From the IMG/VR virus record IMGVR_UViG_3300036785_000557, positions 1-56,583 of that record: a stretch of 56,583 nucleotides of DNA. One strand, written 5' to 3'. The stretch is from a virus. Its lineage: Duplodnaviria; Caudoviricetes. Under the pieces are notes generated by a model. That model saw only the letters and a program-made list of their open reading frames with translations, did not search any database and was not told the origin of the DNA. The position numbers were made by a program, and so were the translations under genes. Numbering within the stretch: the first letter of the stretch is position 1; every line of letters begins with the position of its first letter. This document shows, one piece after another, positions 2,523 through 34,366 of this stretch.

Positions 2523-3985
2523 AATCCTTCCTGTGGATTGTCCTGGTGTGTGATTTCATGGAAGCTTGTGGTGGGGCCATTGAAGGCCAGATATTCGGTG
2601 CCGGGCTCATCATCGCGCACCTTGGCAAAGATGATTTCCGCCTTGCCCGCCGCCTGTTTACGAAGCTCTTGCCATTGGCTGGCCTTGTTGGCGTTATATT
2701 CGGCCGGCCGATTTGGCGTGGCCGGTGGCGGCACATTTCCGAGGTAATATTCCTCACGGTAAATAAACATGACCGCTTCCGCGTCCTGCTCAATTTCGCC
2801 GGATTGTCGCAGATCCTCCATCGTGGGCCGCTTATCCTCGCGTGCCTCAATGCGTTTGAGCTGGGCCAGCGCCAGAATCGGGATGCCCATATCCTTCGCC
2901 AGCCGCTTCAAGCCATTTGAGACCTGCCCGACGCCCCATGTCGGCCCCATACGGGTGGTGGCCACGTCCTGCCCGACAATGTGCAGATGATCCACGATCA
3001 GGAGCCCCAGCCCGTGCTTGCGCATGGCGGTGCGGGCCTTCAGGGCGATTTGCTGGATGTTGACGCCGCTCTGGTCATCTATCGTCATGGGCAGGTTGAG
3101 AAGCCGCGTGCGGGCTTCCAGGATGCGCTGTGCCTGGGCTTCATTCCACGCCCCTTGGCGGATGACTTTCTGCGGCAAACCCGCCAGCCATGCCAGCGCG
3201 CGCCGCCCGAGCTGCGGGGCCTGCATCTCCAAGCTGACAAGACACACACCAACGCCGGTTTCTGCCACGTTGATGCCGATTTCCAGCCCGAGGGCAGTTT
3301 TACCCATGCCCGGCCGGGCCGCCAGAATATACACTGCCCCGCCTTCCAGCCCGCCGAGACGCCGATCCATGGATTTGAATCCGGTGTTGATGGACAGGGA
3401 ATTCCCGGCCGCCGTGCGTTCGCCGGCTGTGACGGCTTTATCCACCGCATCGAGGAGGCTCATAGGTTTGGAGCTGGTGGGCAATAATGTGCGCTCAAGA
3501 TCCTTGATCCCCTTCAGCACCAGCTCACGCGGCGCTGTGTCGGTGGTTTGCGCCTTGATTGCCATCTCCGCCGCCGCGTCAATCACCGACCGGCGGACCC
3601 ACATTTCATAAATGACCGAGGCGTAATCACGGGCGTTTGAAACCCCGACCATGGCCCCGAGGAGCTGCGCCAGATACGGCGGGCCGCCGACTTCAGCCAG
3701 TTTGCCATTCAGCTCGAATTCACTGCGCAGCGTCACCGCATCAGCGGTTTGCCCCAGCACGCAGCGGCGTTGAATGGCGGCGTAAATCGCGCCATGCACG
3801 GGATCTGCAAAATGTTCGGGAGCAAGAAAATCGCCTACGCGGTCATAGGCTTTGTTATTGGCGAGCAGGGTTCCGAGGAGTGCCTGTTCGGCGTGGGTGT
3901 TTGATGGTGGGGGGCCGTCATTTGCGGCGGCCGGTGGTGAAATATCATCATCAAATAGCGGCGGTAAGCGTGAAGTATTCGCCAT
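2513..3985 (-). CDS. dnaB: Replicative DNA helicase DnaB-like
   Basis: AEQALLGTLL N-domain, Walker A AARPGMGKT, SLEM, IVDHLH, LAQL, DLRQSGEIEQDA; start taken at MANTSRL. Confidence 0.95.
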   Translation of the reverse strand: MANTSRLPPLFDDDISPPAAANDGPPPSNTHAEQALLGTLLANNKAYDRVGDFLAPEHFADPVHGAIYAAIQRRCVLGQTADAVTLRSEFELNGKLAEVGGPPYLAQLLGAMVGVSNARDYASVIYEMWVRRSVIDAAAEMAIKAQTTDTAPRELVLKGIKDLERTLLPTSSKPMSLLDAVDKAVTAGERTAAGNSLSINTGFKSMDRRLGGLEGGAVYILAARPGMGKTALGLEIGINVAETGVGVCLVSLEMQAPQLGRRALAWLAGLPQKVIRQGAWNEAQAQRILEARTRLLNLPMTIDDQSGVNIQQIALKARTAMRKHGLGLLIVDHLHIVGQDVATTRMGPTWGVGQVSNGLKRLAKDMGIPILALAQLKRIEAREDKRPTMEDLRQSGEIEQDAEAVMFIYREEYYLGNVPPPATPNRPAEYNANKASQWQELRKQAAGKAEIIFAKVRDDEPGTEYLAFNGPTTSFHEITHQDNPQEGFWQ

Positions 3986-31487: not shown

Positions 31488-31667
31488 TTATGTACCGTTC
31501 GTGGAGTTACCGACATGCGGAATCGCCATGCCGGTATTACGCGTGCCGTTCGGCATTCCTGCCGGTGTCGCGCCAATAGCGGTGGTGTCGAATGGCACCA
31601 CCTTCTGAATCGGTTCCTTGCCCTCGGCAGGAACGGTGTTGACGTATGGGCCTGGACCTTTAGCCAT
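31488..31667 (-). CDS. Small protein (59 aa, MAKGPGPYVNTVPAEGKEPIQKVVPFDTTAIGATPAGMP...)
   Basis: GAGGAG SD; fills the gap exactly; below the ORF-track cutoff. Confidence 0.7.
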   Translation of the reverse strand: MAKGPGPYVNTVPAEGKEPIQKVVPFDTTAIGATPAGMPNGTRNTGMAIPHVGNSTNGT

Positions 31668-31682
31668 CTTCAGACTCCTCGA

Positions 31683-32201
31683 TTAAGCCGCTTCTTGATC
31701 TGGACCGGGGCCGCCACCGGGCGGTCCTGGCGGTGGCGCCGCTGGCGGCGGCGGTGTCATTGCCGGCGGCGCATTCGGTGGCGCTTGCGCCATCTGCGCG
31801 AGCTGCGCGTGCGGTTGCTGTTGGGCTACCTGCTGGGCGGCCATGCGAAGCTGCTGGATCTGCTGTTGATCGGCGCCCACACCCGTATCTGGAATGTGCT
31901 TGGCGAGCTGACCAACTGTCTTTAGCAGATCGTTATGAAAATCTGATCCCATCGGGATGGCGGGCAACGCGGTCTGGATCAGCAATAACGCTGTTCGGAC
32001 CTTTGCAATGGCCGCCAATGTGTTTCCGGGATTGCCTTGCGGGCCTGCTACTCCACCCGTGCCGGGTGGCGCGGCCATCATGCTTGGCGGTAAGGGGGCC
32101 GGGCCAGCCGGACCCCCTGGACCTGGACCGGCAGGGACTCCACCACCACTCCGCATGAGCGCGGCGAGTTGCGGGGGGACTTGGCCCTGCGCGGCTGACA
32201 T
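31683..32201 (-). CDS. Pro/Gly/Gln-rich head-module protein
   Basis: TAATG-coupled to the upstream peptide ORF; central helical core. Confidence 0.65.
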   Translation of the reverse strand: MSAAQGQVPPQLAALMRSGGGVPAGPGPGGPAGPAPLPPSMMAAPPGTGGVAGPQGNPGNTLAAIAKVRTALLLIQTALPAIPMGSDFHNDLLKTVGQLAKHIPDTGVGADQQQIQQLRMAAQQVAQQQPHAQLAQMAQAPPNAPPAMTPPPPAAPPPGPPGGGPGPDQEAA

Positions 32202-32239
32202 TACTTGCGGCCCTTACGGTGCCCTTTGCGACGTGCCAT
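32201..32239 (-). CDS. Basic micropeptide 2: MARRKGHRKGRK
   Basis: AGGAGG SD; TAATG overlap with the next gene; paralog of 32295-32330. Confidence 0.75.
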   Translation of the reverse strand: MARRKGHRKGRK

Positions 32240-32294
32240 CGAATCCTCCTCGGATTAAATTATTGCGGGAAAGGCGAAACAGTCTCAGGGACCG

Positions 32295-32330
32295 TTACTT
32301 ACGGCCCTTGCGGTGACCCTTACGTTTCAT
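32295..32330 (-). CDS. Basic micropeptide 1: MKRKGHRKGRK
   Basis: GGAG SD 7 nt before ATG; over the shared nine codons it differs from peptide 2 only at synonymous sites. Confidence 0.75.
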   Translation of the reverse strand: MKRKGHRKGRK

Positions 32331-32485
32331 GACACAGCTCCACTTGGGTTGTGGGGAGTCCGGGCAACCCGGTCCCTTTGTGTTTCGCCCATATCGGCGT
32401 CCGAGACTCGTATTCCCAAATCGGCAAAAAAGTCAATTAAATTGGAATATTATTCTCCAACATGACTCTCATCGCAATTATTTTT

Positions 32486-34366
32486 CTAAGTTTTTACGAG
32501 TTTTGGTCCCGATGGCGGGCCGCCCGCCCCTGGCTTTTGCTGCTGTGCCTGGGCTTGCGCCGCCGCCTGCGCCGCCTGTGCCTGCGCGGCTTGCGCAATC
32601 ATCGCCTTCACCTCGGCCTCGTGCGCGTCAGCCACAATTTCATCGACATTCTGCGGGTTAATCATCTCGATAAATTGCTCTGGCGAGATCGCACCCGCCT
32701 TCTTCAGCACCAGCGCCTTCTGTATGCCCTCATCGCCAAAGGCCGGGCTGGCACTATGGCTGTCCACCATGACGCGGATGGTCTGCGGCAGATCGTGCAT
32801 TTTGAATTGCACAGGGCGCATCCCATCGGCCGGCGGCACCAGCGTCGGATCATCCGGGATACCCGCCGCTTCATCCGAGGCGGGCGGCATGTACCAGCCG
32901 ACCAGCGTATCAATGCTCTTGGCCCGCAAGAGATCTGTAACAATGGCGGCAGATTTTTGAATCGCGCGCTCGATGCGGATGGCTTTTTGCTTGAAGCGTG
33001 GCGTGGCGTTTTTAGTCATCTGCTCCGCCTGCCCTGCCGTGCGTACCGAGCCCGACGCCATGCCCTGCAATGTTGGCGTCATGCCGGTCATCACATCGAA
33101 CATGCGCTCAGATTCCTTCAGGCTCTCATACAGCCCCGGCGGCAAGGTCGGTGCCAACATCACGGGCGGTTTAGCGGTGATGTCATTCTCATACAGCCAG
33201 CCGCCCGGCTTGGTCAGCTTGGACTTCTTCTGTTGCGTCATCGTCGTGCCACCCTGGAACCATGCGGGCGGATCTTCCTGAAGGCGCAGGAGCCGGTTGA
33301 TGCCGTTGACGCGTTTATTTACTGAAGATTGCAGCAAAGCAAGATTTGCTATTTCACTGCGGCCCCAGAAATAGCCGGCCAAACGGTTGGGGCAAAACTC
33401 CACGAAAGGCTGCTTGAAGGCCAGCGGATTGCCCTCATCCGGCGCGCGGTGAAATGTCTTATTGTTCGGGTCGAGCATGTCAGCCCAGATATTCATGCGC
33501 TGCTCCCGGCCAAAGATGATGACGTTGCCGACCAACTGAAGCGTCGTCCACTCCCGCCGGCCTTCATCGTCCTGGCGCGCGTCATCCTTGATCCACAGCT
33601 CGTCCACGCGGATGAGATCGGTGATAACCTTGGGGTCGAAGCTCGGGTACGGCCCGGCCAGCCATTGCACCATGCCGTTGGGGGTCTGCGGATTGGCGCT
33701 GCCGATGCCACCCTGCCCCTGGTACGGCTGGAAGCCACCCAGAATTACCTGCTTGAGTAAAGCGGCCTGATCCGGCGAATCAGCGCTGCGGGTCTGCGTG
33801 GCAAACCCCATCGCGCGCTTGTAGATCTTCTCTTTATCGGGATGGTCGCGGATCAGGAGCTTGAATTGGTCGGTGGTGATGTAGGTTGAATGGGTGAAAG
33901 CCTCCTGCTCATCGAGCGTTTGCAGATCCGGCCGGTACACCCCCATGAATTCCGGCATCACCAGCACGGGTTCAAGCCCGTTCACAGACCAGAGGTGCTT
34001 GATGAAGGTTTTGCCCAGCACCAGGGACCAGCGCGTGGCCTCCTCATACTGCGTATCCAGATCGCAGGCCCGCGATTGCTCCAGCACTTCATCGGCCGCC
34101 GCCGCGCCCTTGGCGCGCTCCACCTTACTGCCGCCATACCGGAATTTGACCTTGAATCGGAGGTCCACCGAGCTGCATAGGAACGATGTCATGTCCTCTA
34201 TGGCGTCGAATGTTTTGTTGAAAATTTCAGCATCGCCTTGCTCGTTCCCGACGAGGTAGAGATTGCGGAAAAAGGCCGATTTTTGCAGCCGGTCCATACG
34301 GTCGGACGTGCAGATGTTGGCGATCTCGCCGCACCACTCCTCCATGCCACGATCTGGAATAATCAT
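32486..34366 (-). CDS. Portal protein
   Basis: 626 aa downstream of the terminase; PFVEFCPN...YFWGRS and MTGMTP..QG motifs typical of podoviral portals. Confidence 0.75.
   Translation of the reverse strand: MIIPDRGMEEWCGEIANICTSDRMDRLQKSAFFRNLYLVGNEQGDAEIFNKTFDAIEDMTSFLCSSVDLRFKVKFRYGGSKVERAKGAAAADEVLEQSRACDLDTQYEEATRWSLVLGKTFIKHLWSVNGLEPVLVMPEFMGVYRPDLQTLDEQEAFTHSTYITTDQFKLLIRDHPDKEKIYKRAMGFATQTRSADSPDQAALLKQVILGGFQPYQGQGGIGSANPQTPNGMVQWLAGPYPSFDPKVITDLIRVDELWIKDDARQDDEGRREWTTLQLVGNVIIFGREQRMNIWADMLDPNNKTFHRAPDEGNPLAFKQPFVEFCPNRLAGYFWGRSEIANLALLQSSVNKRVNGINRLLRLQEDPPAWFQGGTTMTQQKKSKLTKPGGWLYENDITAKPPVMLAPTLPPGLYESLKESERMFDVMTGMTPTLQGMASGSVRTAGQAEQMTKNATPRFKQKAIRIERAIQKSAAIVTDLLRAKSIDTLVGWYMPPASDEAAGIPDDPTLVPPADGMRPVQFKMHDLPQTIRVMVDSHSASPAFGDEGIQKALVLKKAGAISPEQFIEMINPQNVDEIVADAHEAEVKAMIAQAAQAQAAQAAAQAQAQQQKPGAGGPPSGPKLVKT

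Follow-up and report, generated by a model that had tools for sequence, protein, structure and literature searches.

Structured leaders and translational operators that sequester the Shine–Dalgarno (SD) sequence are known from several phage mRNAs, among them the T4 gene 32 leader and the MS2 replicase operator. Here, we analyze a 284-nt gap between the portal gene and a 172-amino acid (aa) open reading frame (ORF), on the minus strand of the head-gene block of IMG/VR record IMGVR_UViG_3300036785_000557. The analyzed record (hereafter, the window; 56,583 nucleotides, nt) is a complete 56.6-kb phage genome with direct terminal repeats, from a phage group that is uncultivated and known from metagenomes only. 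We lean towards reading the region as the promoter-proximal leader of a head-gene block that opens with two tandem polybasic micro-cistrons, in which the conserved functional structure would be local (a hairpin, A, followed by a three-way junction), and a long-range helix would be a lineage-specific addition.

What the analysis yields is a structured RNA leader without an Rfam match and with compensatory support, tied to conserved, unannotated polybasic micro-genes at a fixed place in the head module. Full-text literature searches, judged mostly from listings and abstracts, returned no description of such micro-ORFs or of the leader. A survey of structured RNA candidates from IMG/VR intergenic regions reported 8,495 motifs, with cis-regulatory candidates upstream of phage genes, including capsid genes (PMC10690425). 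The parts of its text consulted name no motif before micro-ORFs or between portal and capsid, and its supplementary motif tables may hold an overlapping entry.

Relatives were gathered by portal-based scans (5, 10, and 11 loci) and by a capsid-based scan, in which 80 of 119 loci in viral contigs were kept and 6 were found in contigs of metagenome-assembled genomes (MAGs). A portal-based scan of genome contigs found no relative. Homologous loci carry the labels L001-L110, L110 being GenBank MW202753.1. Eleven distinct close leaders were used: that of this phage and those of L001, L003, L005, L007, L008, L010, L012, L015, L025, and L052. The nearest relative is L001, with a portal 89% identical, and it is the sole close relative of this phage found. 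The leader of this phage contains four local helices (all folding energies in this work are model predictions at 37 °C):

32386..32399, minus strand: hairpin A (P0), CGCC-GATATG-GGCG, found in all relatives as CGCC-N6-GGCG
32379..32382, minus strand: P1 5' strand (CACA), whose partner TGTG (32336-32333) lies between the micro-ORF 1 SD and its ATG
32354..32376, minus strand: hairpin B (P2), with a GGGA/TCCC outer stem, a 2-nt bulge, and a CCGGG/CCCGG inner stem
32341..32353, minus strand: P3, an anti-SD:SD helix in which CAC (32353-32351) pairs with GTG (32343-32341), abutting the SD GGAG (32341-32338)

Common to the 11 close leaders are a TTGAC word resembling a -35 element, hairpin A, the CACA spacer, hairpin B (defined across leaders as GGGA ... 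TCCC with a variable inner stem), a C/U-rich word, the SD, and UGUG. When leaders were folded singly, hairpins A and B appeared in 9/9 sequences, and P1 closed a junction of P2 and P3 in 8/9, the exception being the minimum free energy (MFE) fold of this phage. A covariance model (R1) was built from seven relatives with this phage excluded. Searched against 64 sources (561,258 bases), it returned the seven seeds, this phage at 55.6 bits, and the non-seed relatives L001 (51.9 bits), L012 (45.8 bits), and L005 (40.5 bits). Nothing further in the 64 sources scored better than E 0.4, and the distant family loci were not matched; the exact P0-P3 motif is thus confined to the close subfamily.

In the 11-row alignment (A7), standard pairs fill 97.6% of the 211 pair cells. 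Both-side changes occur in 7 of the 20 pairs, of which four belong to the inner stem of P2, two to P3, and one to P1. Shuffled alignments reached the observed value in 0/500 cases on any of five measures, and registers slid by 1-3 columns were 33.7-55.8% paired. RNAalifold, run on the same alignment, recovered the same four helices, with both-side changes in 8/20 pairs. The support is uneven along the fold. Hairpin B has both-side changes in four of its nine pairs, all in the inner stem, which takes at least four different sequences among relatives. In P3 every cell is paired and two of the three pairs change on both sides, the helix being C-A-C/G-T-G in this phage and C-T-C/G-A-G in six relatives. 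The SD/start region of micro-ORF 1 lies in a conserved helix with compensatory change (P3), and the 3' strand of P1 falls between SD and ATG. The mean unpaired probability of the SD region is 0.32 for micro-ORF 1 versus 0.46 for micro-ORF 2 (Wilcoxon p 0.042, n = 11). A search of Rfam 15 over positions 31500-33200, on both strands and with E up to 10, gave three sub-threshold matches of 14-18 bits against gathering thresholds of 39-60. We judge the structured leader to be real and new.

These results bear on several claims of the initial annotation, which had seen in the gap a structured leader before the head-gene block with two mutually exclusive helices, one of them a 17-pair helix enclosing the first micro-ORF. 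Everything it named (the two arms of the long helix, the hairpins, an upstream complementarity, and a TTGACT hexamer) is present where it placed it on the minus strand, and the structured leader stands. It had suggested that a CTCC(CCAC) word could pair with the SD of micro-ORF 1, and this kind of pairing is conserved with compensatory changes across the 11 homologs. Its further idea, that hairpin B ties up this word and so frees the SD, runs against the covariation model, in which hairpin B and the anti-SD:SD helix coexist in one junction; hence, formation of the hairpin does not free the SD. The covariation analysis that it had called for upholds hairpin B and the anti-SD:SD pairing in the 11 homologs, but not the 17-pair helix (see below).

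More distant leaders differ in sequence. Most carry a hairpin ~10-30 nt before the SD, with a semi-conserved apical word on unrelated stems. The 12-nt flanks of this word beat shuffles in complementarity in 13/22 leaders at p <= 0.05 and in 9/22 at p <= 0.01, figures that are indicative only, as the 22 leaders were picked by eye (18/39 listed plus 4) and some stems are truncated by the fixed boundaries. A MAFFT alignment of 22 distant leaders yielded no consensus structure in RNAalifold, their stem lengths being out of register.

The leader runs directly into two very short genes:

32295..32330, minus strand: micro-ORF 1, 11 codons plus stop, polybasic, with homologs in 11/11 close loci
32201..32239, minus strand: micro-ORF 2, 12 codons plus stop, its TAA overlapping the ATG (32201-32199) of the 172-aa gene
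32242..32256, minus strand: AATCC-gagga-GGATT hairpin that holds the micro-ORF 2 SD

All residues of the micro-ORF 1 peptide past the initiator Met are K, R, G, or H, with no hydrophobic stretch, and micro-ORFs 1 and 2 nearly duplicate each other. In every close relative with enough sequence, the same place holds a tandem pair of polybasic micro-ORFs with SDs (three in L001). Among five loci with an identical first peptide, identity is 90% in the leader, 96% in micro-ORF 1, and 60% in the spacer behind it. Where peptides are identical between loci, all nucleotide differences are synonymous. This comparative evidence shows the micro-ORFs to be under peptide-level constraint. The hairpin around the micro-ORF 2 SD may or may not be conserved: 71.7% of its cells are paired, against 58.8% in shuffles and 60.9-67.4% when the register is shifted by 1-3 columns.

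Under a strict rule (7-25 aa, at least half K/R, and an SD word), a scan of the whole genome on both strands returned exactly these two micro-ORFs. Of 68 distinct eligible loci across the wider family, 45 contain one or more micro-ORFs within 1250-2250 nt upstream of the capsid gene, and micro-ORF density is 0.82 per kb in this 1-kb upstream window versus 0.0029 per kb elsewhere in the loci (~280-fold). The micro-ORF sets behind this family count, the promoter statistic, and the trailer energies given below were selected by composition (length, K/R share, SD word, and capsid-gene distance) without manual cleaning. In one such set, the first picks for L047, L048, L051, L056, L061, and L073 are probably false. 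The family micropeptides are 9-21 aa long, usually end in two or three K/R, and are unannotated. The best deposited phage match to this genome is 36% identity over the capsid protein, in two uncultured 'Bacteriophage sp.' records. One record with this capsid identity, MW202753.1, has SD-preceded polybasic micro-ORFs at 2937-2978 and 3057-3098, between its portal and capsid genes. Its annotation over the same stretch lists minus-strand hypothetical coding sequences (CDSs) at 2919-3056 and 3053-3217, which are probably miscalls.

Upstream of hairpin A lies a promoter-like site of the sigma-70 type:

32431..32436, minus strand: -35-like TTGACT
32408..32414, minus strand: weak -10-like element AATACG or ATACGA, 16-17 nt after the -35 and overlapping AGTCTCGG
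32408-32401, minus strand: AGTCTCGG, complementary to CTGAGACT (32288-32281) through seven Watson–Crick pairs and one G-U

The TTGACT hexamer, singled out by the initial annotation, belongs to a conserved promoter-like -35 word. TTGAC is aligned and invariant in 8/9 leaders (L005 has TGGAC), and occurs 40-140 nt upstream of the first micro-ORF in 36/50 distinct leaders, compared with 7.5% of 5000 random 100-nt windows. In this phage and its close relatives, the best -10 hexamers match TATAAT at 3-4 of 6 positions, and distant relatives have TTGACA-N16-18-TAnnnT, with a better -10. A consensus promoter scan did not list the TTGACT site and gave instead TTGCGA-17-AATAAT (32477-32449), which is kept in L001. 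The complementarity of AGTCTCGG is also as first described, and it appears in the MFE structure of the 148-nt fold. Its part in the leader RNA would be limited, however, since it lies in the -10/discriminator of the promoter-like site and would enter RNA only in read-through transcripts. Between the portal stop and the -35, at 32485-32437 (minus strand) and in L003, L007, L008, and L012, an A-rich run precedes a small hairpin, unrelated in sequence between loci, which in L008 carries a U run. This run and hairpin, together with the second promoter-like match, may mark the end of a terminase-portal transcript.

The long-range helix is built from two arms:

32370..32389, minus strand: 5' arm, GGCGAAACA-caa-AGGGACCG, sharing bases with P0 (3' strand), P1 (5' strand), and hairpin B (5' strand)
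32273..32294, minus strand: 3' arm, CGGTCCCT-gagac-TGTTTCGCC, its first base directly after the micro-ORF 1 TAA

Nine plus eight Watson–Crick pairs flank a 3 x 5 internal loop and enclose 75 nt. A gapless inverted-repeat search did not list the helix, as each half is below the 14-nt limit set. Pairing of the 5' arm with the 43-nt trailer has a predicted duplex energy of -32.0 kcal/mol (z = -5.11), a value reached by 0/300 dinucleotide shuffles of the trailer. When 14,106 windows of 26 nt were sampled from both strands of the genome, 1.34% had a partner 56-156 nt downstream with an energy of <= -32 kcal/mol; in a GC-rich genome, the helix is thus unusual but not unique. Folds of the whole region beat shuffles only modestly (286 nt, z = -2.59; 148 nt, z = -1.03). 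For an RNA starting at hairpin A, pair probabilities are 0.78-1.0 for the outer nine pairs, 0.13-0.29 for the inner eight, 0.52-0.74 for local hairpin B, and at most 0.07 for hairpin A. The mutual exclusion claimed for the long-range and local helices therefore holds as a competition within the predicted ensemble, between the inner helix and hairpin B. In read-through RNA from the portal stop, the outer helix drops to 0.32-0.39.

Among relatives, the helix largely disappears. In an arm-trailer duplex test on ten of them, z ranged from -1.44 to +1.72 and the smallest shuffle fraction was 0.097. Mapped on a MAFFT alignment of 11 homologs, the 17 pairs have 56.0% of cells paired versus 54.2 +/- 1.4 in shuffles, with 76/500 shuffles reaching the observed value and slid registers at 29.1-43.9%, a mapping that is weak by itself, given that the spacer aligns poorly. 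The energy gained from leader-trailer pairing is -13.2 in this phage, against -4.5 +/- 2.6 for shuffled trailers (0/150); it is marginal in L001 (-10.7, z -1.95, p 0.040), and z is -0.03 to +1.31 in the nine others. The MFE fold of L001 retains the outer nine pairs, with one A-U to G-C change on both sides and one G-C to G-U change. In L007, L025, and L012, folding likewise joins the 5' end to the trailer, but no better than it does with shuffled trailers. As a general device enclosing the ORF, the 17-pair helix is not supported. The proposed switch is at best lineage-specific, and the helix itself belongs to a small lineage made up of this phage and, more weakly, its nearest relative; nine relatives have the same leader and peptides but lack the helix, an indication that the cassette can do without it.

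The reading that we lean towards can be laid out in steps. (i) Synthesis: transcription would start just before hairpin A. (ii) Initiation: P1 (CACA/UGUG) would close hairpin B and P3 into a three-way junction in which the micro-ORF 1 ribosome-binding site is partly buried, and this junction may damp or gate initiation at micro-ORF 1. (iii) Delimitation: structures behind the ORF, including the long-range helix here, would shield a short, abundant mRNA for the peptide or set its bounds. In this phage, the trailer would have acquired complementarity to the leader, so that the whole first cistron could be closed into a loop. The long-range helix would replace the local post-ORF hairpin of relatives and compete with P0, P1, and hairpin B. 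Its inner half would be opened by a ribosome that terminates at the micro-ORF 1 stop, because the 3' arm starts at the next base after the stop.

Several points weigh against this reading or narrow it. The transcript start, the RNA ends, and any processing are inferred from the DNA. Fitting alignment A7 to the model biases its counts in favor of the structure, and because of the relatedness of its 11 sequences the shuffle counts should not be taken as probabilities. Neither hairpin A nor most of P1 varies in a way that would support an RNA helix: two of the four pairs of hairpin A are constant and the other two deviate only through unpaired cells, and three of the four P1 pairs are invariant. 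Since the pairs of hairpin A do not change on both sides, it has no covariation support; both elements could be DNA-level signals, and for hairpin A a DNA palindrome (operator) is an equally open reading, a palindrome near +1 being the classic operator position. Burial of the micro-ORF 1 SD is moderate and incomplete. The leader-only MFE fold of this phage pairs UGUG with a second CACA further downstream and not with the P1 strand of the model. The predicted thermodynamic ensemble of this phage is dominated by the outer long-range helix, with hairpin A almost missing, so the conserved P0/P1 may not be the equilibrium state here. Finally, the compensatory change relative to L001 hints at selection on the outer helix in that lineage, and 'add-on' should not be taken to mean 'without function'.

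That last point leads to the strongest competing account, in which the long-range helix and hairpin B are two functional states of a lineage-specific switch, flipped by translation of micro-ORF 1 and tuning micro-ORF or head-gene translation. The predicted ensemble populates both states, the helix exceeds every shuffle in both energy tests (0/300 and 0/150), L001 keeps the outer helix through its two-sided change with a marginal gain (p 0.04), and a ribosome terminating at the stop would cover the adjacent 3' arm. Yet 9 of the 11 homologs have the same leader and micro-ORFs without such pairing, and the 3' arm lies within the least conserved, fastest-evolving segment, at 60% identity in five relatives. 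The coexistence of hairpin B with the anti-SD helix contradicts an ON/OFF logic, an equal duplex energy is found in 1.34% of genome windows, and a helix present in two sequences only does not allow covariation to be assessed. We regard the switch as unlikely.

The near-repetition of the two micro-ORFs invites a historical explanation, that the complementarity is a functionless by-product of tandem cassette duplication, in which a decayed second copy of the hairpin B 3' strand pairs with the first 5' strand. The inner 3' arm, CGG-TCCC, equals the hairpin B 3' strand (CCGG-ac-TCCC) minus its bulge, and the absence of the helix from most relatives would fit, as would equal-energy windows that are not rare. 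A TCCCC word stands ~25-30 nt before the second SD in the trailers of L007, L008, L015, L025, and L052; it resembles the hairpin B 3' strand plus anti-SD and may be a relic of such a duplication. Leader-to-trailer similarity, the trace that a duplication should leave, is nonetheless not above shuffles in 10/11 loci, the outer nine pairs are left unexplained, and the outer helix of L001 survives with a change on both sides. This origin seems to us rather doubtful, more so than the switch.

Could the helix be a processing site? A cut of the RNase III type would excise micro-ORF 1 or create stable ends, and the size and interrupted shape of the helix resemble phage T7 sites; the hairpins found after every family micro-ORF also fit a role in processing or stability. 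The helix is, however, not conserved beyond this phage and L001, it encloses 75 nt and a translated ORF where known sites are compact local hairpins, and a cut in the 5' arm would destroy the conserved leader. We give this candidate little credence.

Hairpins behind the micro-ORFs are a feature of the family at large. Each relative has one, of unrelated sequence, at the micro-ORF 1 stop position; in this phage the position holds a weak one:

32289..32307, minus strand: GGGCCGT-aagta-ACGGTCC hairpin over the micro-ORF 1 stop, competing with the inner long-range helix

This hairpin is seen in MFE structures of the region. Across the family, the 72-nt stretches behind micro-ORF stops have a mean folding energy of -25.9 kcal/mol versus -20.0 for background (67 distinct trailers versus 2010 windows; Mann–Whitney p ~1e-6), and 43% of the trailers lie below the fifth percentile of the background. 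GC stems followed by U runs stand after the ORF in L005 and L012. As read from printed tails, clear U runs also follow the hairpin in L053, L042, L096, L086, and L101, and follow micro-ORF 2 in L008, L015, L025, L052, and L010. The majority of post-ORF hairpins have no U run. Locus L014 (portal 41%) has a clear terminator-like hairpin with a T run after its portal, at 2334-2370; TTGACG-N17-TATCAA follows, at 2480-2680, with a different leader, a single micro-ORF, and a GC hairpin of 10 bp. Judged by this arrangement, the cassette logic is kept in L014 although the leader sequence differs.

Such hairpins raise the prospect of a transcription decision point, with the promoter-proximal hairpin as a recognition or anti-termination element and the post-ORF hairpins as terminators gating read-through into the head genes. 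The order of promoter, hairpin with apical motif, short ORF, and GC hairpin recurs family-wide, and several relatives have U runs after their hairpins. Against it, the minus strand of this phage contains no terminator-like site between 31000 and 33500, micro-ORF 2 overlaps the start of the next gene, the U run is missing after most post-ORF hairpins, and no antiterminator gene was identified, no test having been aimed at antiterminator proteins. We think a decision point quite improbable.

The peptides themselves could possibly act as DNA counter-ions or as RNA-binding peptides. Taken to its end, this would make the cassette a self-regulating polycation factory, delivering abundant R/K-rich micropeptides from a short hairpin-bounded mRNA as protamine-like counter-ions for packaged DNA, the peptides also binding their own hairpin B, in the manner of arginine-rich-motif peptides, to feed back on translation or read-through, with the long-range helix as the loop closure of one lineage; we consider this speculative and hard to credit as a whole.

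The genes around the gap have the order of a head module:

37145-35295, minus strand: large terminase (TerL), separated from the portal by two small ORFs
34366-32486, minus strand: portal gene, directly upstream of the 284-nt gap
32201-31683, minus strand: 172-aa ORF, rich in P, Q, A, and G, the next gene after the micro-ORFs
minus strand, between the 172-aa ORF and the major head protein: a 59-aa ORF, then a 198-aa ORF
30854-29790, minus strand: major head protein, on the same strand as TerL and portal

Pfam and PHROG searches with the 172-aa protein gave no match. Its gene is syntenic in all relatives, and its start overlaps the micro-ORF 2 stop only in this phage. A DNA similarity search with 31600-32800 against deposited phages returned no match. 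Loci L023 and L024 (portal 41% identical) are not comparable, as they have opposite-strand genes after the portal. Titles of the MAGs from the capsid scan span Methylocapsa to Acidobacteriaceae, which may reflect binning. Elsewhere in the genome, on the plus strand, a perfect 16-nt inverted repeat (2059-2074 / 2170-2185) has arms 95 nt apart, each with a TTGAC-like word, and ~70 nt past it, at 2257-2283, lies the only other TTGAC-N18-ATAS match of the genome; together, the two may form an early regulatory region near the genome end.

How, then, does the locus compare with described systems? In its proposed mode of action, the leader is closest to the SD-sequestering leaders of phage mRNAs, with its ribosome-binding site partly in a conserved helix (P3) and a compact junction just before the start codon. 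Unlike at the T4 gene 32 and MS2 operators, the regulated cistron is an 11-codon polybasic micro-ORF, and the RNA has no Rfam match. The trp, his, and pyrBI attenuators share with it a short ORF with a hairpin close behind, the ORF here bearing an SD and being conserved; alternative helices exist in this phage, and in some relatives the hairpin after the ORF is truly terminator-like. The leader differs from attenuators as follows: the genes downstream are head genes (the 172-aa gene without family match and the major head protein), where attenuators precede a biosynthetic operon; conservation extends to the sequence of the peptide, and loci with identical peptides differ by synonymous changes alone; this phage has no U-run terminator between the leader ORF and the structural genes; and the 5' arm of the alternative helix (32389-32370) lies upstream of the ORF (32330-32295), not inside it.

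The long-range helix has its own set of parallels. Like T7 RNase III sites, it forms about two helical turns interrupted by an internal loop and lies between cistrons of a phage operon; unlike them, it is long-range, enclosing 75 nt and a whole ORF, and is not conserved among relatives. Type I toxin mRNAs (e.g., hok with its fbi, and aapA1) similarly pair a 5' leader with a site just past a very small ORF, looping the ORF; here, however, the peptide is polybasic rather than a hydrophobic membrane peptide, the SD lies outside the long-range helix, and the pairing is found in 2/11 homologs. The λ pR'-6S RNA-tR', N/nut, and HK022 put modules also place a promoter and then a short hairpin-bearing unit before late structural genes, and some relatives of this phage have terminator-like hairpins as these modules do. 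In contrast to the λ and HK022 modules, the short unit is translated, and terminators are inconsistent among relatives and absent from this phage.

For the switch put forward in the initial annotation, the outcome is a caution that a striking helix in one genome need not be the conserved structure. The micro-ORF family is a more surprising object than the RNA; if its peptides prove structural or regulatory, they would be a class of phage gene products missed by gene callers and proteomics. In summary, the leader appears, on this analysis, to work like an SD-sequestering phage leader and recalls attenuators, T7 RNase III sites, and the loop closure of type I toxins, yet it departs from the defining features of each.

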